This document shows positions 1 through 63,997 of a DNA stretch of 64,000 nucleotides, piece after piece. This stretch comes from Alphaproteobacteria bacterium (GTDB lineage: Bacteria > Pseudomonadota > Alphaproteobacteria > Rs-D84): positions 154,546-218,545 of the forward strand of contig JAFTPS010000014.1 in NCBI GenBank assembly GCA_017463185.1, written 5' to 3'. Every line of letters begins with the position of its first letter. Position 1 is the stretch's first letter. A program made the position numbers and the translations under genes. Under the pieces are notes generated by a model that saw only the letters and a list, made by a program, of their open reading frames with translations, did no database searches and was not told the DNA's origin.

Positions 1-12
1 CATTCCACATCC

Positions 13-1239
13 CTAAAAAACGTATCTCAAAGACAAACCACCTGTGTGATTAACCACATCTGTATGTAATCTTAAATCATAATTTAGGCGTAAATTTATG
101 CCGCTAATATTATATTCAGCCCAAATGCCAAATTCTGCCCCCAGTGGTCGTTCTGTGTCTTCTATTTCAAAATTGTATTTATATCCCAATACATCTAAAT
201 CTACTTTATTGTCTGGTTGTGTAATATTATATTCAACAAATGCACGACCACCCAATACAAAATCACCAATCGCATGTTCATAACCCGCCCCTGCAACAAC
301 ACTATAAAAATCACTTTTGGATTTTTTTAAGTATTCACTGTTTTGATTTAATTCTATATTTGTGTATCTGATACCAATTTCTGGACTTAATCCGTATTCT
401 GTTTTATAACCCGCCATAACCGATGCAAACAAACCAGATACATCACCATTATTCAATTCACTATCTATATACTCATAATCTGCAAAGTTATACGCAACCA
501 GCCCATTTACATAGAATTTGCTCGGTTGCCATTTTGAATATAAAAATACACTGCCTGTATCAAATAATATATCAGACGGATTTATATCTATATCAACATT
601 TGAATAACTGTATCCCGCACCCATTAAAACACTATCTGACAACTGTAAATCCGCCCCCAGAATAACCCCCAGTCCATTTGTTGAATAATTGTATTTACCA
701 GACTTATTCATTGAATTAAGTAATGTTGTTCCCCATACAGAAAACTTATCATCATTAAACCCTATATTACCAAAAACAGAATTATAAATATCAATATTAT
801 GTTGTTTTACAATATTTCTTGAAATGCCAATAACCGATAAATCCGTCAATTCAGAAACATTATTCGCAACCCAATTATCAAATTGATTTTTTAAGTCTGC
901 TACATTCTGTAAAACAAATTCATCCCCCTCTAAACCTATTTCCTTATCAAAATTTTCAAACGTTATACCAGAATAATAAAATTCACTTGGACTATAAGGT
1001 GCCTGATATTCATAACCGTTTCCATCACCCAACCATTCTGTTTGAGTTAATACTAAACTATGTTCAAACGGTTTATAATAATAGTAAATATCTGAAATTT
1101 GTGTTAATTGTCCAGCCGCAGCATATGCAGGGTCAATAACACTATACATATTACCATCATATGAAACCAACGTTAAATCCACTGCATGTGCAGAAATTGC
1201 ACAAAATATACCAACCAAACCAAATATTATCTTTTTCAT
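13..1239 (-). CDS. Outer-membrane beta-barrel protein (autotransporter/OMP-like), signal peptide
   Basis: N-terminal signal peptide MKKIIFGLVGIFCAISAHA. Gly/Tyr-rich amphipathic beta-strand pattern throughout and a C-terminal ...LSLRYVF ending in aromatic Phe, typical of OM beta-barrels. Preceded by the conserved structured leader (copy 1). Confidence 0.55.
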   Translation of the reverse strand: MKKIIFGLVGIFCAISAHAVDLTLVSYDGNMYSVIDPAYAAAGQLTQISDIYYYYKPFEHSLVLTQTEWLGDGNGYEYQAPYSPSEFYYSGITFENFDKEIGLEGDEFVLQNVADLKNQFDNWVANNVSELTDLSVIGISRNIVKQHNIDIYNSVFGNIGFNDDKFSVWGTTLLNSMNKSGKYNYSTNGLGVILGADLQLSDSVLMGAGYSYSNVDIDINPSDILFDTGSVFLYSKWQPSKFYVNGLVAYNFADYEYIDSELNNGDVSGLFASVMAGYKTEYGLSPEIGIRYTNIELNQNSEYLKKSKSDFYSVVAGAGYEHAIGDFVLGGRAFVEYNITQPDNKVDLDVLGYKYNFEIEDTERPLGAEFGIWAEYNISGINLRLNYDLRLHTDVVNHTGGLSLRYVF

Positions 1240-1490
1240 ACTACACCCTTTGTAAAAAAAACACCGCCAATAAAGGATATTGACGGTCGGGCGTTTCCAA
1301 AAATCATACTGTAAATGACTCCCATTGCGTTCAGGTTGCCCTTATTGTATTACAACGGGTGGCCCGACCAAAGGTCAGGCATAACGATGCGAATGCACCA
1401 TTTGCAAAAGTGGATAACGATGCATATCGCACCGTACAGTATGGGCTTTTGGAACCCGAACCCGCTAGTCCCCTATCGGATTCAATACTT
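1240..1490 (-). promoter_or_regulatory. Conserved structured 5' leader, copy 1 (terminator hairpin plus U8 abutting the RBS; upstream complementary antiterminator segment)
   Basis: In RNA orientation the leader reads ...GGGUUCGGG...CCUGACC..GGUCGGGCC...UAUGAUUU..GCCCGACCGUCAAUAUCCUUUAUUGGCGGUGUUUUUUUU-ACAAAGGG-N7-AUG. GGUCGGGC is complementary to GCCCGACC, which overlaps the terminator stem. The same architecture and motifs recur at 9328-9595 and 16493-16715. Confidence 0.55.
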
Positions 1491-1534
1491 ATAATAACAG
1501 TAAATACCTATAAATGCAAAAAATAAAAAAACGA

Positions 1535-2188
1535 CTAAATTGTTTCATCAACAAGCTTAGATATAAAATCTACAAAATCACTGGAAAATTTTATATCCAA
1601 ATTTTCATTACAAGAGATTAAATTTTTAATATTTTCTATATTTTGGAAATCTAGCCAACATTCATCACCTGTTTTACATGGGATAATCCTATCAGCCTCA
1701 CCTTTATAAAAGGCAGCAACCATAGGATTAATAAAATGATTATTTTGTTCACAAAAATCCTGCCACAACATAACAACATCGCCTCCATGACACATAGATA
1801 AAAAATCTTCACCATTCATGTAATTAAAACATAATTTTACGGGCAAATTAGCAACCCTTAAACCACGAGGCAAATTTACAAGAGCACGATTTATTTCTTG
1901 CTGACACATTTCTTTTATTTCTTCTAAAGATAAGTTATTATATTTTCTCTTAAATAGATCTACATCTAACCAAATACACAGCTCATCAAAATCACCTTTT
2001 ACAGATTTTAAAGCATCCTTTATTCTTGATATATAATTACTTACTGTTATACCACCACATAAATTACTAGACATTATAGTAACAATTTGCTTATCTGTAT
2101 ATTCTCTAAAAAACTTTTTCAATACTTTTATATACCTTTCTTCGCTTCCACCCTCACAAACCACCAAAATATATTTATATACACACAT
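1535..2188 (-). CDS. RloB/TOPRIM-like small protein (AbiLii / DUF4276-like partner of an ABC-type ATPase)
   Basis: N-terminal motif ILVVCEGGSEERYIK matches the RloB/OLD-TOPRIM (v)EGxxE signature. 217 aa; its start overlaps or abuts the upstream ATPase gene (2188 vs 2198). The gene is very AT-rich compared with its neighbours. Confidence 0.55.
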   Translation of the reverse strand: MCVYKYILVVCEGGSEERYIKVLKKFFREYTDKQIVTIMSSNLCGGITVSNYISRIKDALKSVKGDFDELCIWLDVDLFKRKYNNLSLEEIKEMCQQEINRALVNLPRGLRVANLPVKLCFNYMNGEDFLSMCHGGDVVMLWQDFCEQNNHFINPMVAAFYKGEADRIIPCKTGDECWLDFQNIENIKNLISCNENLDIKFSSDFVDFISKLVDETI

Positions 2189-2197
2189 GTCAAACCC

Positions 2198-3541
2198 CTA
2201 ATCCAAAATAATAGGCTGCCCCCTATACATCCCAGAAACATACCTATCTCTGAAATTAACCTCATTCCTTTTTTCTATAGAAGATAATCTAACCAAGACA
2301 GAACCGTTTTTTTTGTTTTTATTAACAAAGGCAAATTCATCTGTTTTATAAATCTTATTTTCTAAAATATCAGTTGTATGCAAAGTAGCTATTAGCTGCG
2401 CTCCATTCTTATTCAAATTTTTATATTTAAACCTTTTAATTAAACCTTCTAAAACTTTTGGATGTATAGAACGATCCATTTCATCTATTATAATCAAAAC
2501 ACCTTTTTCAACTGCCCCTAATATTAAACCAGCCAATTTAAATATTTCTTGAGTACCAACGGATAATTCATTATGAAAATTAAAAGGAACATCTTTTCCT
2601 GTATCATCTTCTAAATAAGGAATAATATCATCAACATAAACCTTGTCTTCATCAAAATTTTTTATAAAATCAAACGGAATTTCAACATTCATCAAACTCT
2701 CTTGAGAATACTCTTTATATTTATGCTCAAAACGTTTAACATCTACATCAAACATCTGAATAAACTTTGATATTTTATCCAAACTAACACATATATCTTC
2801 ATCCTTATCAGAATCAGCTAAATATCTAATAGAAGAAAATGCTCTTAAACTATCTTTTGCTGAAATTATTTTTATATTATTAGAAATATAATAAAAAACA
2901 TCCGATAACCTACTATCTAAGTTAGGAAATTGCCAAACAAATTTTTCTAAAAAAGTATTTTTTTGATAATCTTGTCCATCCTTACCACGAACAATAGCAG
3001 CAGTTTCGTATATTTTATCTAACAAAACATAATCAAAACCATCACAGTCAATATTATCAAAATAAGTTTTTTGATTTTCTATTTTGTATATAGATATATT
3101 ATTAGTTAAATCAATTAATTCTTCATAAACAATGGAATTCTCATCAAAAGCCAAAATATAACTATACTTACGTGAATTAACAAAAAATTCTATACTAAAA
3201 CACGTTGGTTCTTTTATAAAACGCAATTTGTTTGGTTGATACGAAGAAAAAACCAAACCATCTACTACAATCTCACGAAAAACTTTTATCGCCTTAACTA
3301 TATTACTTTTACCACTAGCATTAGGACCATATATACATTCCACAGGAACAACCCTGTCAGCAATTTTTTTTGTTGGTTCCAATGCATAAATTACATCTTT
3401 CTCAACCAATCTTTTTTGGCCAAAAGACATATCCAACGTCAAATCAACAATGGATTTAAAATTTTTTATATTTAATCTATACAACATGTTTTTTACCTTA
3501 GGCGAGCATATTATACCATAAAAAAGAAAAAAATTCAACAA
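2198..3541 (-). CDS. AAA_21/ABC-type ATPase (AbiLi / RloA / PARIS AriA-like defense ATPase)
   Basis: Walker A GPNASGKSN near the N-terminus. A long helical middle region, then Walker B/D-loop LIIIDEMDRSIHP and an H-loop-like ATLHT near the C-terminus; this split ABC ATPase architecture is typical of the AAA_15/21 family. Forms an operon with the TOPRIM-like gene. Confidence 0.65.
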   Translation of the reverse strand: MLNFFLFYGIICSPKVKNMLYRLNIKNFKSIVDLTLDMSFGQKRLVEKDVIYALEPTKKIADRVVPVECIYGPNASGKSNIVKAIKVFREIVVDGLVFSSYQPNKLRFIKEPTCFSIEFFVNSRKYSYILAFDENSIVYEELIDLTNNISIYKIENQKTYFDNIDCDGFDYVLLDKIYETAAIVRGKDGQDYQKNTFLEKFVWQFPNLDSRLSDVFYYISNNIKIISAKDSLRAFSSIRYLADSDKDEDICVSLDKISKFIQMFDVDVKRFEHKYKEYSQESLMNVEIPFDFIKNFDEDKVYVDDIIPYLEDDTGKDVPFNFHNELSVGTQEIFKLAGLILGAVEKGVLIIIDEMDRSIHPKVLEGLIKRFKYKNLNKNGAQLIATLHTTDILENKIYKTDEFAFVNKNKKNGSVLVRLSSIEKRNEVNFRDRYVSGMYRGQPIILD

Positions 3542-3630
3542 TAAACAACTTTTTTGTTTATATTATAAAAAAACAAACACAACAAACACAAAAACACATA
3601 CAATAATATTATTATAAACAAAAAAATTGT

Positions 3631-4803
3631 TTATAATACCACAAACCCCAGCATTTTATCTGTGGCGGTTTGCATAGAATCACGAATTGGGTCAACGGTC
3701 AGGCGACTATAAACCTGTGTTGCGCTGGTGGATTTATGGCCAAGTGATTTACCAATAACCGGCAAACTGGCACCCGATATTGCCTGCCACGACCCCATTG
3801 TGCGACGCAGGTCATGAATCCGCATATCTGTGATGTTTGCCGCCTTTAACAAAGATTGCCACGGACGTTTCGGGTCTTCCAGATGTCCACTGGCACTTTT
3901 ACTACTCGGCAATACCCAACCTTTTTTCTTGCCTTGATTGATTTTTAACAGCAATTCACGCAACTGATTCACCATTGGAATCTGCAACGGTTGCCCACCT
4001 TTGGAATCAGGCACATATATCAACCCCGACGTAAAATCAACATGTTCCCAGCGCATAGTCAGCACATTATTCCGCCGCATCCCAGTCATCAGCGATATCA
4101 TCACATAGTTTTTGAACACATCGTTTTTACATTCCGCCAAGGCCGTCCAGAACCTTTTTAATTCATCACCATTCAAGAATCTGTCCCGACTTTTTTCTGT
4201 AAATTTACGAATTCCGCCGGCCGGATTACCACGTAACCCCATTAAGCCCTTTTTCACTGCAATCACATACATATGCTTAATCAACGACAACACCCGATTG
4301 GCCGTATATGGACTGTGTGTTTTACAAGTCTCCGCATGCAGGCGTTCAATCTCGTCCGCTTTGATACTTAACAACTTGCGATTATGAAATTGATTCAACC
4401 GGTGCTTGAACACACTGTCATCATTTACAACCGAATGTTGCTTTTTATAGATTGTGGAATATTCGGGTTTATAGATATTTTCATAAAACTGGCGCAGGGT
4501 CATATCATTCAGATTTTCCCGTCTTTGAATACTGGGGTCTGTGCCATTAGTCGCCATTTCTTTTAAGCTATGCGCCTGCCGCCGTGCATCACACAGTTTA
4601 ATCTGCCCCACACGCCCGATTTTTATACGCTTTGGTGTGCCTTGGAATTTCATATAGGCATAATAAGTCTTTGCCCCGCCATAGGTCACAATAACACACA
4701 GACCATCATGACTGCCCGTGTCATAATAAACCGCCTGCCCCGATGCAGGAACGGCTAAATTTTCCAACGCCCGTTCTGTAAAATTGATACGATTTGACGA
4801 CAT
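3631..4803 (-). CDS. int: Tyrosine site-specific integrase (P4-type)
   Basis: 390 aa. C-terminal catalytic residues R..HDLRRT..HKSTSATQVYSRL (R-H-R-Y), with an N-terminal arm-binding region. The gene directly abuts the Bro-N gene and lies about 1 kb from a tRNA 3'-end fragment. Confidence 0.85.
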   Translation of the reverse strand: MSSNRINFTERALENLAVPASGQAVYYDTGSHDGLCVIVTYGGAKTYYAYMKFQGTPKRIKIGRVGQIKLCDARRQAHSLKEMATNGTDPSIQRRENLNDMTLRQFYENIYKPEYSTIYKKQHSVVNDDSVFKHRLNQFHNRKLLSIKADEIERLHAETCKTHSPYTANRVLSLIKHMYVIAVKKGLMGLRGNPAGGIRKFTEKSRDRFLNGDELKRFWTALAECKNDVFKNYVMISLMTGMRRNNVLTMRWEHVDFTSGLIYVPDSKGGQPLQIPMVNQLRELLLKINQGKKKGWVLPSSKSASGHLEDPKRPWQSLLKAANITDMRIHDLRRTMGSWQAISGASLPVIGKSLGHKSTSATQVYSRLTVDPIRDSMQTATDKMLGFVVL

Positions 4804-5634
4804 TTATTCTTTAGCCACACGCTTTAACAGTTTTGAATTTGTGCCCGACACAACCCTTTTTCCGGTTTCTTGTTCCAGCTGTAATCGTGCCTGACGGGCA
4901 ACATTACCGCCACGCTTGGCCACCGCCATATTTTGTGCCAGTCCCATTGGATTTTCATTTTTTGCAATCTCGGTCGCAGACAGTTCCGCCAACATATTCA
5001 GAACCAATTCAGCATTCGTCATATTATCACGCAAGGATTCTTTCTTTAGCCCTTTGTGCTGTTTATATTCTTTGGTCTTCATACCCGACCAAGAACGTGT
5101 AATTTCATCTGTCAGCAAGGCGTATTCCAATCCTTTCTTAATTCCACCCTTGTCCCATTGATTGGTCAGGTCTTTACGAATTTCAATAGAACGCAACCGC
5201 TGGGCAATCCATTCATCCGAATAACCCAACCGCTGGTAATAATTCAATGCACGTTGAATTGCGATTTCGGGGTCTGATATTTCATCAATTCTTTCACTAC
5301 CCACACTGGCCAGCCACAACTTAAATGGTTCTGCTTTCTTAGATGGCACAGATTGAATCAAGCGCAACAACTGTTCTGTGTCCGCCACATCGGTCATACG
5401 CAACTTGCCATCTGGTGCAACCAATTTCAACTGGTTACAATTTGTAACCGTTTCATTTCCTTCCGCCTTCAGACGGCTTTTCAAAACCTTCCAATAATTA
5501 CGTGAATGTTGATAATCCGATTCCGTCAATGCTGCAATAACATCAACAATGGAAAAATACCACTTTTCAGCATCCGCATCCCATTGGGTTCTGATATTTG
5601 TATCTTGGAACAGTTTTAGTGTCGTATCCGTCAT
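4804..5634 (-). CDS. Bro-N domain protein (DinD / phage antirepressor KilAC-like)
   Basis: N-terminal Bro-N-like segment WDADAEKWYFSIVDVIAALTES...YWKVLKSRL and a C-terminal KilAC-like region. 276 aa, a length matching the DinD family. Contiguous with int. Confidence 0.55.
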   Translation of the reverse strand: MTDTTLKLFQDTNIRTQWDADAEKWYFSIVDVIAALTESDYQHSRNYWKVLKSRLKAEGNETVTNCNQLKLVAPDGKLRMTDVADTEQLLRLIQSVPSKKAEPFKLWLASVGSERIDEISDPEIAIQRALNYYQRLGYSDEWIAQRLRSIEIRKDLTNQWDKGGIKKGLEYALLTDEITRSWSGMKTKEYKQHKGLKKESLRDNMTNAELVLNMLAELSATEIAKNENPMGLAQNMAVAKRGGNVARQARLQLEQETGKRVVSGTNSKLLKRVAKE

Positions 5635-9327: not shown

Positions 9328-9595
9328 TGCACATCCCTTTGTTAAAAAATAAACCGTCAATGGAATTTGACGGTCGGGGAGTTAGCAAATCATATATGTC
9401 AATGATTCTGTCGCTTTTAGGTTTCCCCTGTTGTATAACGAACAGCCCCCCGACTGATTTACAGTCAGGGATAAATAACGACACAAAACCACAGGAATGA
9501 CATCGGATAACGATGCCATACGCAATTTTGCACCGGACATATAAAGGCTTGCTACAGCCCCGAACCCAATTCCCATTGGATTCATTTCCTAGTTT
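9328..9595 (-). promoter_or_regulatory. Conserved structured 5' leader, copy 2
   Basis: RNA orientation: GGGUUCGGGG...CCCUGAC..CAGUCGGGGGGCUGUUCGUUAUACAACAGG...UAUGAUUU...CCCCGACCGUCAAAUUCCAUUGACGGUUUAUUUUUU-AACAAAGGG-N8-AUG. Terminator-like hairpin plus U-tract. GUCGGGG is complementary to CCCCGAC. Confidence 0.55.
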
Positions 9596-9620
9596 AACAT
9601 AAAATATATAAAAAAGGCAA

Positions 9621-15914: not shown

Positions 15915-16492
15915 TAGAAACGATAACCAATACTGGTTGTTATGGCAAAACCAGATGTATCAACTGTATATTCATAACCGTTTACATCAGTTTCAAAATT
16001 CATAATTTGATATTCTAATCCACCCTTTATAGACAGATTATCATTGAAATTATATTTCACACCGGCGCCAATGCCATAGGCAACGGCTGTATCATCAAAG
16101 CTTAAACTTCCGTCATCATATTCCATATTTGCAAATCCTAATTCTGCTGAAATGTATGGTTGTGTTTTTCCGTCCAAGAATGGAACAATAGCTCTTAAAC
16201 TAACACCAAATATTTCTTCCGTTTCTGTTTCTGAAAATTCTGGTGCAATACCAATTTGAATACCGTCAAAATCAATGCCGACATATGCAGAACCATTACC
16301 GTTAAAAGCAGAAGAATCTGCTTCTGTAATTTTTGTTCCGTCTAATTCATATTCCGCAGATGTGTTTGAATACAAACTGATTCCATATTCAATAAAAAAT
16401 CGTGGGTTTAATTTATTTTGTTGAACACTTTCTTCTGCAAAAGAAGTCACCGGCAACAAAGCCAATGCGGCAATTATTGAAATTTTTTTCAT
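15914..16492 (-). CDS. Small outer-membrane beta-barrel protein (Omp25/OmpW-like)
   Basis: Signal peptide MKKISIIAALALLPVTSFA and a C-terminal ...TTSIGYRF. Preceded by leader copy 3. Confidence 0.6.
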   Translation of the reverse strand: MKKISIIAALALLPVTSFAEESVQQNKLNPRFFIEYGISLYSNTSAEYELDGTKITEADSSAFNGNGSAYVGIDFDGIQIGIAPEFSETETEEIFGVSLRAIVPFLDGKTQPYISAELGFANMEYDDGSLSFDDTAVAYGIGAGVKYNFNDNLSIKGGLEYQIMNFETDVNGYEYTVDTSGFAITTSIGYRF

Positions 16493-16715
16493 ATTTTCTC
16501 CCTTTGGTTAAAATTTAAACCGTCAGAAATGACGGTCGGGGTGGTTGATAAATCATAGTTTAGGAAATGACTCTGTTGTCTTTGGGAAAATCCCTGTTAT
16601 ATAACAAACAGCCCCCCGACCGTTATAGGTCAGGGATATTTCAGTGTGTAATAAACACTGCCTAAACTATTGGGTTATCACACCCCGAACCCACATCCCT
16701 GCAGGTTCATTAAAA
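16493..16715 (-). promoter_or_regulatory. Conserved structured 5' leader, copy 3
   Basis: RNA orientation: GGGUUCGGGG...CCCUGACC..GGUCGGGGGGCUGUUUGUUAUAUAACAGG..UAUGAUUU..CCCCGACCGUCAUUUCUGACGGUUUAAAUUUU-AACCAAAGGGAG-N4-AUG. Confidence 0.5.
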
Positions 16716-16803
16716 AGTATATATTAAATATCACTACTTTTCAACCCAAAGCAAAAATATATAAATAATTCATATAAATTAAAATTTCTCAGGAACACAA
16801 TAG

Positions 16804-16884
16804 ACCCCGGCCTGCGCCGGGGTGACGATTAGTTATTTGTATATAGATTTTAGACTCGTCATACCGGCGTAGGCCGGTATCCAC
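16804..16884. repeat. Two GC-rich REP-like palindromes upstream of the GIY-YIG gene (ccccggc-ctgc-gccgggg; ataccggc-gtag-gccggtat)
   Basis: GC-rich hairpins in an AT-rich context. Homologous hairpins flank the second GIY-YIG paralog at 63552-63577 and 63968-63997. Confidence 0.5.
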
Positions 16885-16939
16885 TGCGTTCTTGATAGTC
16901 CTTGCACTTGAATATAAAAAACAATAAAATTAAATTATT

Positions 16940-17254
16940 ATGAAATCTGGTGGTTGGATTTATATTTTATCAAATAAAAAAATGGGTACTTTGTATGTTG
17001 GTTCAACAACCGATTTAGTTGGACGAACATGGCAACATAAAAATCGTTGGATTCCTGGTTTTACATCCAAATACAATATTGATAAACTGGTGTATTATGA
17101 ATGGCATGACAGTCTTGAAAATATGGTTTTGCGTGAACGTCAAATAAAAGAATGGAAACGTGCATGGAAATTAAGACTAATAATAGATTTTAACCCCGAT
17201 TGGCTTGATTTATATAATGAGTTGTTAACTAAATCAGGCTATATCCCAGAATAA
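16940..17254 (+). CDS. GIY-YIG nuclease family protein (UPF0213/COG2827-like)
   Basis: GIY-YIG core ...GWIYILSNKKMGTLYVGSTTDLVGRTWQHKN... About 70% identical to the paralog at 63596-63910. Flanked by 24-bp direct repeats: caggaacacaatagaccccggcct at 16790-16813 and cacagaacacaatggactccggcct at 17261-17285. Confidence 0.75.
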   Translation: MKSGGWIYILSNKKMGTLYVGSTTDLVGRTWQHKNRWIPGFTSKYNIDKLVYYEWHDSLENMVLRERQIKEWKRAWKLRLIIDFNPDWLDLYNELLTKSGYIPE

Positions 17255-17343
17255 AAACATCACAGAACACAATGGACTCCGGCCTAGTATCACCCACAAA
17301 AATTTTCAATTTTTGCGGGACCCGAAGCCGGGGTTATGTGCAA

Positions 17344-17406
17344 TCACTACCCACTAACCACTTACACTAACCACTATAAAAATCCCGCCATTGGCAGGAT
17401 TTTTAT
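17344..17406 (+). ncRNA. Candidate small RNA 3' end: CA-rich motif (cactaaccacttacactaaccacta) followed by an intrinsic terminator; copy A
   Basis: A 33-nt motif nearly identical to 43881-43913, in both cases immediately followed by aaaaatccc-GC hairpin-tttt. No ORF is present. Confidence 0.3.
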
Positions 17407-18428
17407 ATATACCATTCAACTGTTTTTATAATGCCGGTATCAAATGTTTCATCAGCGCGCCACCCCAGCTCTGTTTCCAGTTTGGTTGCATCAATTGCAT
17501 ATCGGAAATCGTGACCGGCACGATCAGCAACAAATGTAATCAATTCTTCATACTTTTTGCCATCGGCGCGCGGACGCTTTTCATCCAGTATGGCACAGAT
17601 TGTTTTTACAATTGTAATATTGTTGCGTTCATTATGCCCGCCAATATTATATGTTTCACCTGCACGTCCTTTGTGGAAAATTAAATCAATTGCCTTGCAG
17701 TGGTCCAGCACATACAGCCAGTCACGAACATTTTCACCCCGTCCGTAAATAGGCAAAGGTTGCAATGCCAACGCTTTGCCAATAATATGCGGAATCAGTT
17801 TTTCATTATGCTGTTTTGGACCATAATTGTTGGAACAATTTGATGTTGTTACATTCATTCCATATGTATGATGATATGCGCGTACCAGAAAGTCAGACGA
17901 TGCTTTTGATGCTGAATATGGACTGTTTGGTGCGTATGGTGTATCCTCGCGGAACATACCAGTTGCGCCCAATGCGCCATAAACTTCATCTGTTGAAATA
18001 TGATGAAAACGTGCATCTTCATAGCCTGATTTTATTTTACCGGGCCCATCCATCCAATGCTTGCGTGCCGCATCCAGTAAATTAAAAGTTCCTATAATAT
18101 TAGTATTGATAAATGCGCGTGGTCCTTTTATAGAATTATCCACATGACTTTCTGCGGCAAAATGGATTACACCACGAATATCATTTTCTGTAAATAATTT
18201 TTCAATTAAATCCACATCGCAAATATCGCCCTGAACAAAAGTATAGTTGGGCATATTTTCACATTCACGCAAATTATCCAGATTTCCCGCATATGTCAGT
18301 TTATCCAGATTGATAATTTTATATTCGGGATATTTTTCACAAAAATATGGAACAAAATTAGAACCAATAAATCCCGCACCACCTGTGATTAAAATTGTTT
18401 TATACATTTTTCCAAACCTTTTTTCCAA
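17403..18428 (-). CDS. rfbB: dTDP-glucose 4,6-dehydratase
   Basis: TILITGGAGFIGSNFV Rossmann motif, the NLDKLTYAGNLDNL hallmark, and a YxxxK catalytic pair. The true start is probably the internal Met (MYKT) at 18407. Confidence 0.9.
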   Translation of the reverse strand: MEKRFGKMYKTILITGGAGFIGSNFVPYFCEKYPEYKIINLDKLTYAGNLDNLRECENMPNYTFVQGDICDVDLIEKLFTENDIRGVIHFAAESHVDNSIKGPRAFINTNIIGTFNLLDAARKHWMDGPGKIKSGYEDARFHHISTDEVYGALGATGMFREDTPYAPNSPYSASKASSDFLVRAYHHTYGMNVTTSNCSNNYGPKQHNEKLIPHIIGKALALQPLPIYGRGENVRDWLYVLDHCKAIDLIFHKGRAGETYNIGGHNERNNITIVKTICAILDEKRPRADGKKYEELITFVADRAGHDFRYAIDATKLETELGWRADETFDTGIIKTVEWYI

Positions 18429-43332: not shown

Positions 43333-43686
43333 TTATATGATTTTATCAAATTCCTGTCTGCGTTCATGATATATTTTATCGTACACGCGATAATTGCTTT
43401 CACGATTGATGATTTTCTCTAAATCCTGTAATACAGATTTCAGATTCAGAAATGCACTAAACACCGCAGTATATATTTCTTCGTGTGTCGGTCTGTTTTT
43501 GCGCGATTCAGTTATTGCCTGTGCGATTTCCAACAATGTTTTATTTTTTGCTTCTTCGTTCATGACCGTACCCCTATCGTAAAATCCCACTTTGTGGAAT
43601 AAACAAAAACCGCATTTGAAAACAAAAGCGGTTGGAGTTTTAGAACAATTAAGCGAATTGCATGCCTTATTCAATATATTCGGCAT
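43333..43686 (-). CDS. Hypothetical small protein (true start possibly at internal MNEEAKN, about 76 aa)
   Basis: ORF only; no motifs recognised. Confidence 0.25.
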   Translation of the reverse strand: MPNILNKACNSLNCSKTPTAFVFKCGFCLFHKVGFYDRGTVMNEEAKNKTLLEIAQAITESRKNRPTHEEIYTAVFSAFLNLKSVLQDLEKIINRESNYRVYDKIYHERRQEFDKII

Positions 43687-43880
43687 ACTCCAACCGCAAT
43701 GGTCGGAGTATTTAACACCTCTTCAGGTGCGCTCAAAGGGTTCTAAAGCCCCACACTGAAAAACCTCAGTGCCAGCACATTATATGATATATAAAATACA
43801 ATTTCAAATGCTTAGATAAATAAAAGTTTATCAGAGTGGTAAGTGTTTGCACTATAATGTGCGGCATTCGCCACACGCAT

Positions 43881-43941
43881 TCACTAATCACTAACCACTT
43901 ACACTAACCACTAAAAAATCCCCCCATCTGGGGGATTTTTT
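43881..43941 (+). ncRNA. Candidate small RNA 3' end: CA-rich motif plus intrinsic terminator; copy B
   Basis: tcactaatcactaaccacttacactaaccacta followed by aaaaaatcccccc-atct-gggggatttttt. A possible promoter (ttatca..N19..tataat) lies about 60 nt upstream at 43818-43848. Confidence 0.3.
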
Positions 43942-63494: not shown

Positions 63495-63551
63495 AAACCC
63501 GGCATTTGCCGGCGTTTTTATATTCAAACAATTTGGTCCCTGCGGGGCAAT

Positions 63552-63577
63552 AGATACCCGCCTGCGCGGGTATGACG
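63552..63577. repeat. GC-rich REP-like palindrome (atacccgc-ctgc-gcgggtat) flanking GIY-YIG paralog 2
   Basis: Homologous to the hairpins at 16804-16884. Confidence 0.45.
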
Positions 63578-63595
63578 CGAGTTTTTAGCTATATG

Positions 63596-63910
63596 TTATT
63601 CTGGGGAATAGCCCTCAGCCAAAAGAATATCGTTATACAAATCACGCCAATCAGGATTTTTTTGAATTATTAGTCTGTATTTCCAATTACGATTCCATTT
63701 TTTTAACTGTCGTTCGCGCGCAACCATATTTTCTAATCGCTCGTGCCATTCATAATAAACCAATTTATCAACATTATATTTGGATGTAAAACCTTTGATA
63801 GCTTTGTTTTTGTGCTGCCAAATTCGTCCAACTAAATCAGAAGAAGAACCAATGTATAATGTCCCCATGGGACCGCTTGCTAAAATATAAACATATCCAC
63901 CAGATTTCAT
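63596..63910 (-). CDS. GIY-YIG nuclease family protein (paralog 2)
   Basis: MKSGGYVYILASGPMGTLYIGSSSDLVGRIWQHKN... is about 70% identical to 16940-17254. The ORF-track N-terminal extension to 63994 runs into the flanking palindrome and is likely spurious. Confidence 0.75.
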   Translation of the reverse strand: MKSGGYVYILASGPMGTLYIGSSSDLVGRIWQHKNKAIKGFTSKYNVDKLVYYEWHERLENMVARERQLKKWNRNWKYRLIIQKNPDWRDLYNDILLAEGYSPE

Positions 63911-63967
63911 AATGATATTATGATAATAACCGCATATCTTTTCAAACAAAAATTCATCAACACAGCC

Positions 63968-63997
63968 GTCATACCTGCGCAGGCGGGTATCCATTGC
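63968..63997. repeat. GC-rich REP-like palindrome (cgtcatacctgcgcaggcgggtatcc) flanking GIY-YIG paralog 2
   Basis: Near-identical to cgtcataccggcgtaggccggtatcc at 16858-16884. Lies at the window edge. Confidence 0.45.

Follow-up and report, generated by a model that had tools for sequence, protein, structure and literature searches.

Two GIY-YIG nuclease genes with flanking CGTC-tagged hairpins are probable Ssn/SRM modules in an alphaproteobacterial genome

We analysed a 64,000-nucleotide stretch of contig JAFTPS010000014.1 (assembly GCA_017463185.1), hereafter the window, which carries two small GIY-YIG nuclease genes with GC-rich hairpins beside them. The contig measures 264 kb and is metagenomic, and the nearest proteins with a named source belong to MAGs labelled 'Alphaproteobacteria bacterium'. 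The initial annotation had described a 104-aa GIY-YIG open reading frame (ORF) with a paralog of about 70% identity, and both genes, here called ssn, are present as described (Table 1): their products are identical at 73 of 104 residues (70%) in an ungapped alignment, and the genes lie 46 kb apart within the window. The Pfam family PF01541 (GIY-YIG) scores 50.8 and 57.6 bits in the two proteins against a cut-off of 22.6 and spans residues 5-78 of both, and no second Pfam family matched. An exact database look-up of the 104-aa copy-2 product returned no record, because gene callers take a 132-aa ORF whose start, at 63994, lies inside the upstream hairpin, as seen in record L148 of the public gene calls.

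A family of nucleases paired with hairpin repeats, the Ssn enzymes with their SRM and NTS motifs, was described by Chenal et al. (Nat Commun 2025, PMC11893778). The ssnA gene of Neisseria meningitidis (NMV_0044) encodes a 94-aa single-domain GIY-YIG protein, and its homologs were delimited by the Conserved Domain Database class cd10448 (PMC11893778). As our reference we used the N. gonorrhoeae ortholog, a 94-aa ORF at 1489-1773 of L172 that stands in for the meningococcal protein; it was recovered from a 2.17-Mb record filed among plasmids, was identified by Y6, Y17 and E64, and is surrounded by 16 NTS copies within 3.3 kb. In ungapped alignments to this ortholog the window proteins are 48% (copy 1, E 7e-33) and 59% identical (copy 2, E 1e-37), so that with the gonococcal protein as reference both fall below the family threshold of E < 1e-10 to SsnA (PMC11893778). 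Residues Y8, Y19 and E66 of the window proteins fall on Y6, Y17 and E64 of SsnA, are invariant across an alignment of nine proteins and keep the SsnA spacings of 11 and 47 residues. In SsnA, the substitutions Y6A, Y17A and E64A each destroy cleavage (PMC11893778). Both window proteins also have the size and domain content of the Ssn family, that is, about 90-105 aa with GIY-YIG alone.

The hairpin pattern CGTCATACCNGCGCAGGCNGGTATC, allowing at most 3 mismatches, had three matches in the window (0.00 in shuffles), namely SRM A and the two SRMs of copy 2, all of which adjoin ssn genes. The published SRM regular expression (PMC11893778) matched SRM D, SRM A and the downstream SRM of copy 2, with 0.055 matches expected per shuffle; SRM D thereby joins the set as a fourth full hairpin, more divergent than the rest, and the upstream SRM of copy 2 misses the expression at one position, a T:G wobble in its stem. 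Folded as single-stranded DNA (ssDNA), four of four full copies gave an 8-bp stem with a 4-nt loop (-10.7 kcal/mol and z -4.0 for SRM D). All five copies, four full and one truncated, lie within ~115 nt of an ssn gene.

Table 1. Positions of the ssn genes, their SRM hairpins and the associated repeats in the window.
Feature	Position	Strand	Core	Tail or arm	Description or basis
ssn paralog 1 (clade 1)	16940-17254	+			104 aa, single GIY-YIG domain, predicted site-specific ssDNA endonuclease
ssn paralog 2 (clade 2)	63596-63910	-			104 aa, single GIY-YIG domain
SRM D, upstream of copy 1	16793-16832	-	CGTCACCCCGGCGCAGGCCGGGGTCTAT at 16800-16827	..TTGTGTTCCTG	published regular expression, fold
SRM A, upstream of copy 1	16852-16894	+	CGTCATACCGGCGTAGGCCGGTATCCAC at 16857-16884	..CTGCGTTCTTG	pattern, regular expression, fold
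SRM E, truncated, downstream of copy 1	~17262-17285	-		..GAACACAATGGACTCCGGCCT on + strand	21-nt direct repeat with 16793-16813
SRM downstream of copy 2	63536-63582	-	CGTCATACCCGCGCAGGCGGGTATCTAT at 63550-63577	..TTGCCCCGCAGGGACC	inverted repeat, pattern, regular expression, fold
SRM upstream of copy 2	63962-63997	+	CGTCATACCTGCGCAGGCGGGTATCCAT at 63967-63994		inverted repeat, pattern
Direct repeat at copy 1	16793-16813 / 17265-17285				21 nt, ungapped, 90% identity
Inverted repeat around copy 2	63547-63577 / 63967-63997				31 nt, 94% complementary

The arrangement of these elements differs between the two genes. Both copies had been thought to be bracketed by hairpins, which holds on both sides for copy 2; copy 1 has two full SRMs upstream and a truncated one downstream. 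SRM D and SRM A stand tag to tag with a 29-nt spacer between them, and SRM A, whose ortholog in the related locus L156 shows compensatory stem changes, lies 56 nt before the copy-1 ATG with its tag away from the gene, as in most relatives. SRM E retains the tail and the adjacent stem arm and is broken off in the loop, the CGTC tag and the other arm being gone. It does not fold. It occupies the position of the complete downstream SRM in relatives, and in L156 its ortholog, at 4327-4366 and equally far from the stop codon, is complete. The tags of both copy-2 SRMs face inward to the gene; the downstream element ends 18 nt from the stop codon, the upstream one 56 nt from the ATG, and the downstream element carries a clade-2 tail (see below).

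The near-identical direct repeats reported around copy 1 do exist, at 21 nt and 90% identity instead of the 24 bp originally given. Each repeat unit comprises the tail of an SRM together with one of its stem arms; the two SRMs concerned share their orientation, and the one downstream of the gene is truncated. Because the repeat is made of SRM copies, and because the L156 ortholog is a complete SRM, it does not represent a target-site duplication; what had looked like a duplicated target or recombination site resolves into parts of two SRM copies.

We then compared the hairpins with described repeat classes. About half of the Neisseria dRS3 copies belong to a longer oriented motif, the NTS, with the consensus CGTCATTCCCGCGMAVGCGGGAATCYRG (PMC11893778). 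This strict 28-nt consensus is approached in the window by the downstream SRM of copy 2, with 3 mismatches, the other copies being more distant, and the elements are therefore SRMs, not NTS. CGTC-tagged repetitive extragenic palindromes (REPs) were described by Di Nocera et al. (2013, PMC3733652), whose class CGTC-1 includes Neisseria dRS3 and Rickettsia RPE-6 and is marked by a 4-nt loop, a CCA-like tail and an 8-bp stem whose first pairs are A-T. The window hairpins have the tag, the 8-bp stem, the 4-nt loop and the CCA-like tail of this class, with SRM D deviating at the second stem position. Rfam found no family in the whole window at the gathering threshold. Two candidates from an Rfam E-value search of 16450-17420 were rejected as chance: MIR862, on the tag-to-tag SRM pair (34 bits, gathering threshold 100), and FtrB (24 bits, gathering threshold 66).

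Close homologs of the window proteins in related assemblies (67-85% identity) are flanked by the same hairpin. The usual layout is an SRM 35-55 nt upstream of the ATG and another ~20 nt past the stop codon, with the CGTC ends outward. The published regular expression matched at most 185 nt from the gene at 7 of 9 related ssn loci, and the flanking SRMs of L009 and L156, which fall outside it, are nevertheless plain by reading. Among the published homologs of ssnA, 71% have at least one flanking SRM and 42% have one on both sides (PMC11893778). By pairwise identities the genes form two clades. Clade 1 comprises window copy 1, L156 and L161, with SRM tails ..ATTG(T/G)(G/A)TTC, and clade 2 comprises window copy 2, L009, L160, L165 and L169, with tails ..ATTG(C/T)CCC(G/A); the contrast between the two paralogs reads ..TTGTGTTC versus ..TTGCCCCG. 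The window genes are two old paralogs, not recent duplicates. Tail type tracks protein clade in 8 of 8 loci, which are related and hence not independent, and the possession of an own SRM tail by each clade suggests two co-evolving enzyme/motif pairs. A separate observation concerns the loop. At L012 2905-2975 the SRM upstream of ssn carries a ~45-nt loop insert that holds another palindrome, cccgcgcaaatattcgtttgcgcgggg, and the counterpart at L009 2915-2975 is without the tag-side arm. Neither the identity of the loop nor its extension is reported to block cleavage in vitro (PMC11893778).

To assess conservation beyond the window we aligned 20 SRM copies from the window, its relatives, Oleiphilus and N. 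gonorrhoeae, and calculated covariation on the 18 distinct copies. All 20 copies agree in the CGTCA tag and in the T-C that follows the stem. Within the 8-bp stem none of the 144 cells is unpaired, and compensatory changes occur at four of the eight pairs; none of 500 shuffles equalled the covariation score, and shifted registers collapse. For dispersal we scanned one genome per species with the pattern CARTRGANNCCSGCCNNCGCNGGNNTGACG and grouped the matches into 8-kb blocks. At least 120 blocks hold the hairpin, each with a nearly identical 30-mer, and among the matches listed they derive from Sphingomonas, Neisseria, Acidimicrobiales, Chloroflexota, Zixibacteria, metagenome-assembled Rickettsiales genomes and others. 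Again among the matches listed, an Ssn-like ORF is present in 6 of 120 blocks and lies at most 300 nt from the motif in 5 (Oleiphilus, Neisseria, and gamma-, delta- and alphaproteobacterial assemblies), as tblastn and a family hidden Markov model run on six-frame translations agree. Palindromes without the gene, whose existence had been put forward as a check, thus account for the remaining 114 blocks. As the hairpin is mostly gene-free across phyla, it is a dispersed REP-type element. At the same time it is strongly enriched beside Ssn genes, so that the early caveat that the palindromes might be ubiquitous REPs unrelated to gene positions was right about their ubiquity and wrong about the positions.

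The conserved form of the hairpin bears on the possibility that these elements act mainly in RNA or transcription, as terminators, mRNA stabilisers or an ssn operator, with a regulatory link to the nuclease instead of an enzyme-substrate one. We regard this as very unlikely. The SRMs do lie intergenically at gene ends, upstream SRMs keep a conserved distance of 35-56 nt before the ATG, a terminator-like score was obtained for SRM D on the - strand, copy 2 has a promoter-like site in the interval from its upstream SRM to its ATG, and many REPs have been argued to act as RNA elements (Di Nocera et al. 2013, PMC3733652). However, most SRMs are without a T-tract, the promoter scan did no better than shuffle expectation, and the unpaired CGTCA tag and trailing C, invariant across phyla, would be needless for a plain terminator. 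SsnA, moreover, binds neither RNA nor double-stranded DNA (dsDNA) in vitro (PMC11893778).

A second possibility, that both genes are ordinary housekeeping nucleases of the COG2827/UPF0213 (YhbQ-like) type or freestanding homing endonucleases with coincidental palindromes, is hardly tenable in view of the association of palindrome and gene, which is far beyond chance both here and in other phyla, and of the direct homology to SsnA. Its support would lie in the generic GIY-YIG domain of both proteins and in a weak, sub-threshold likeness to TIGR01453, a group I intron endonuclease model. With 19 bits where 56 are required, that match led us to reject a homing endonuclease, and neither an added DNA-binding domain nor an intron or intein context nor a phage homolog was found.

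Taken together, each locus is very probably an Ssn/SRM module, composed of an SsnA-like GIY-YIG endonuclease and its cognate flanking CGTC-tagged hairpins of the CGTC-1 REP class. Our analysis supports this directly through homology, catalytic residues, motif match, hairpin covariation and the association of gene and motif. The proposal of a REP-element/nuclease association analogous to REP-RAYT therefore agrees with the published Ssn and SRM/NTS system (PMC11893778); the pairing of nuclease and hairpin is real, but the system was already published in 2025 (PMC11893778).

The biochemistry of SsnA indicates how such a module might work. SsnA of four species binds the folded motif as ssDNA only and on one strand only and cuts a few nucleotides upstream of it; the C that follows the palindrome is critical, as are the three nucleotides that precede it (PMC11893778). 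In the window, DNA that becomes single-stranded during replication, repair, conjugation or uptake would fold, on the strand reading CGTCA-stem-loop-stem-TC, into the 8-bp hairpin. The Ssn protein would recognise this hairpin through sequence and structure and nick the strand that forms it, a few nucleotides to the 5' side of the CGTC tag, leaving dsDNA, RNA and the complementary strand untouched. The predicted cuts lie near 16852-16856 (+) and 16829-16833 (-) for copy 1 and near 63578-63583 (-) and 63961-63966 (+) for copy 2. SRM-bearing ssDNA would in this way be restricted or trimmed, modulating recombination and horizontal transfer near SRM sites, and the enzyme may also create and maintain the SRM repeats. 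N. meningitidis SsnA reduces transformation by NTS-bearing DNA (PMC11893778), and the host of the window carries VirB3/VirB4 genes. Restriction of incoming or exposed ssDNA together with control of recombination at SRM sites is our best-supported guess for the role, with repeat dissemination as an open alternative.

Several results weigh against an Ssn/SRM module at these loci, or at least against parts of it. The upstream SRM of copy 2, with its wobble, folds weakly (-5.4 kcal/mol, z -0.7). A sequence search of the PDB found no relative, and in NCBIfam no model exceeded its cut-off, the sole match being TIGR01453. We found no solitary SRMs in ~77 kb of this genome, comprising the window and a further 13.5 kb from its contig, and a Neisseria-like genome-wide role is therefore not evident here. 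Both tags of copy 2 face the gene, whereas those of copy 1 and of most relatives face outward, and no stated mechanism accounts for this; an inversion between the flanking SRMs was rejected on logic, since such an inversion leaves tag direction unchanged. The ssDNA cleavage by the window proteins and their role in the host are inferred from homology to the characterised Neisseria and Wolbachia enzymes.

We next considered whether the modules move. The ssn genes occupy different sites among relatives. Clade 1 is found at ychF/dnaG (window, L156) and at L36/ychF (L161), and clade 2 after accC (window), at sufBD/L36 (L009), at dnaG/ychF (L165), after an OmpA gene (L160) and at PPDK/PagL (L169). 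These differences therefore leave room for long-term mobility. In L156, a 55-nt direct repeat of 96% identity (3857-3911 / 4390-4444) surrounds a 478-nt SRM-ssn-SRM cassette. The repeat is the ychF/dnaG terminator, and it is present in a single copy at 1000-1055 (reverse strand) of L009, at a junction without ssn. The two loci form a filled/empty site pair, which is equally compatible with insertion plus duplication and with deletion between the repeats. L165 has a 178-nt repeat of 91% identity that takes in an SRM, a terminator and the final portion of the ssn ORF; as it contains the 3' end of ssn, a partial tandem duplication fits better than a target duplication. Both repeats lie at the dnaG/ychF junction, with a spacing similar to that of the window repeat. 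Long flank duplications are absent at L009, L161 and L169, and the filled sufBD/L36 site of L009 shows no duplication relative to the empty junction in L165. We therefore rejected long flank duplication, seen in L156 and L165 only, as a general insertion signature. A tRNA-linked island was likewise rejected, the tRNA scan having found none.

Within the species the genes appear fixed. Look-ups covered 16-17 contigs for each queried window protein, with one or two places shown and others collapsed as similar to them, and every place so shown or collapsed keeps ssn at one site. Empty sites, sought in the same species via the neighbouring AccC and outer-membrane proteins, did not turn up, as the gene is present at every place shown or collapsed as similar. 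The identical proteins P0022 and P0070 each showed one genomic context. We saw neither near-identical ssn copies nor presence/absence polymorphism in same-species contigs. The phage collection contained zero homologs, and plasmid homologs occur in 33 of 72,556 records, mostly large replicons classed as non-mobilizable.

These observations allow the strongest competing explanation to be weighed, in which SRM-ssn-SRM is an autonomous element resembling an insertion sequence (IS), the nuclease serves as transposase and solitary SRMs are non-autonomous derivatives, as in RAYT with REP/REPIN. The inverted SRMs around the gene do resemble terminal inverted repeats, clade-2 genes sit at no fewer than four sites in five related genomes and clade-1 genes at two sites in three, and in other genomes solitary SRMs exceed gene-linked ones. 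The filled/empty pair with its 55-nt duplication points the same way, and the NTS-ssnA-NTS arrangement has itself been likened to an IS or to REP-RAYT, with mobility hypothesised (PMC11893778). We nevertheless judge this explanation unlikely. No near-identical copies exist, since the paralogs share 70% identity and fall into two separate, old clades; the same-species contigs examined keep the gene at one site, and identical proteins in relatives showed one context. The long duplication is missing at three loci, reads better as a partial tandem duplication in L165, and has an equally good explanation by deletion at the filled/empty pair. Phage matches are nil and plasmid matches few, and strand-transfer activity of Ssn is not known. 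The claim in the initial annotation of a mobile or homing-like cassette with a duplicated target is not supported in the form given, in view of the SRM nature of the direct repeats, the missing homing DNA-binding domain, the lack of phage homologs, the old clades and the single site in the same-species contigs examined. We saw nothing that would indicate homing or a recent transposition. The sequences fit old paralogs with occasional relocation or turnover in a rearrangement-prone neighbourhood, and an active transposon does not fit.

A further reading, in which SRM-ssn-SRM mobilises itself or recently did so, with a GIY-YIG ssDNA nuclease as the driver of a new class of transposon, is improbable. 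If true, it would involve insertion beside hairpins such as terminators, long flank duplications (55 nt in L156) and solitary CGTC REPs left behind. The CGTC REP superfamily would then have its 'missing transposase', and there would be a reason why rearrangement junctions in this lineage are marked by ssn.

The motif GCAATCACTACCCACTAACCACTTACACTAACCACTA occurs twice in the window, at 17340-17376 and 43877-43913, and also at L009 955-1000 (reverse strand). In relatives it adjoins the end of dnaG; in the window the rfbBDCA operon intervenes, and this operon looks inserted relative to L156 and L009. Short-read (Logan) contigs with ssn copy 1 all stop 120 nt past the stop codon, at ~17374, within this motif.

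We also noted other elements nearby. A conserved element of ~210 nt is present in the window at 16493-16725 (-) and ~9361-9600 (-), and in related loci at L148 5925-6150, L012 3410-3665 and L161 4490-4720. It precedes genes for small exported or outer-membrane proteins and has a terminator-like hairpin at its end, just before the ribosome-binding site. Its invariant blocks are TGAATCCA..GGGATGTGGGTTCGGGG, GTCGGGGGGCTGTT and CCCCGACCGTCA..TGACGGTTT. RNAalifold on 5 sequences predicted 38 pairs, of which 9 show compensatory changes, and there was no Rfam match. We list the element as a candidate for a cis-regulatory leader or a riboswitch-like RNA in this lineage. A second leader-like sequence (..ggtcaggaggttg..gtgtgcttatt..atatat.cgcaaccctcctgacc..) sits upstream of genes for cysteine-rich small secreted proteins at L148 6840-6960, L156 1820-1950 and window ~43650-43720. 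At L148 7195-7375, ~1.3 kb past the right end of the window, inspection by eye revealed a tRNA-like gene upstream of the MetRS gene, preceded by an apparent degenerate partial duplicate. Window positions 3631-5634 (= L173 5606-7609) encode a phage-type integrase (Arm-DNA-bind_3 + Phage_integrase) and a Bro-N protein beside AAA_15/AAA_21 ATPase genes. This stretch is low in GC (0.30-0.33 at 1-4000) and may hold an integrated element.

The value of assigning these loci to Ssn/SRM lies mainly in annotation, as genes called 'GIY-YIG nuclease family protein' with CGTC hairpins in these uncultured Alphaproteobacteria become readable as Ssn/SRM modules. The points that follow are modest additions to the 2025 description. 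The two paralog clades, each with an SRM tail of its own, might serve ssDNA tools as orthogonal enzyme/site pairs. The exclusively gene-linked SRMs in the ~77 kb seen would represent a state preceding repeat expansion. The cassette is placed at local rearrangement junctions, and the filled/empty pair bears on whether Ssn modules move and spread CGTC REPs.

Among known systems, the window loci most resemble Neisseria Ssn with its SRM/NTS. They share a single-domain GIY-YIG protein of ~94-104 aa with the same catalytic Tyr, Tyr and Glu (48-59% identity to the gonococcal ortholog), and flanking hairpins, matched by the published pattern, in which a GC-rich stem of 8 bp and a loop of 4 nt are accompanied by a CGTCA tag and a trailing C. 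The differences are that the window stem reads ATACCSGC instead of the ATTCCCGC of NTS, that the window proteins are ~10 residues longer than SsnA at the C-terminus, and that the window has a pair of paralogs, separated by 46 kb and differing in their SRM tails. Whereas pathogenic Neisseria have hundreds of clustered NTS, the window SRMs are few and gene-linked only in the ~77 kb seen, and the host is an uncultured alphaproteobacterium from metagenome assemblies, with VirB genes.

The hairpins also share with the CGTC-1 REPs (PMC3733652) the terminal CGTC tag, the 8-bp stem starting with A-T, the 4-nt loop, a short CCA-like tail, a predominantly alphaproteobacterial distribution and frequent inverted dimers, although the stem of SRM D opens A-C, not A-T. 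GIY-YIG homing endonucleases of the I-TevI type have the catalytic domain in common with the window proteins. Their C-terminal DNA-binding domain, dsDNA cutting and residence in introns or phages do not apply here; the window ssn genes are freestanding and intergenic, without the defining features of homing endonucleases. With REP/REPIN-RAYT systems (IS200/IS605-like Y1) the loci share a small nuclease gene between inverted copies of a hairpin recognised as ssDNA, repeats that are otherwise dispersed, and mostly vertical inheritance. In contrast to RAYT, the nuclease has a GIY-YIG fold, not HUH/Y1, the tag is CGTC, not GTAG, and Ssn is not known to carry out transposition chemistry. The loci thus stand outside the REP-RAYT class and beside it as an analogous pairing of nuclease and hairpin.

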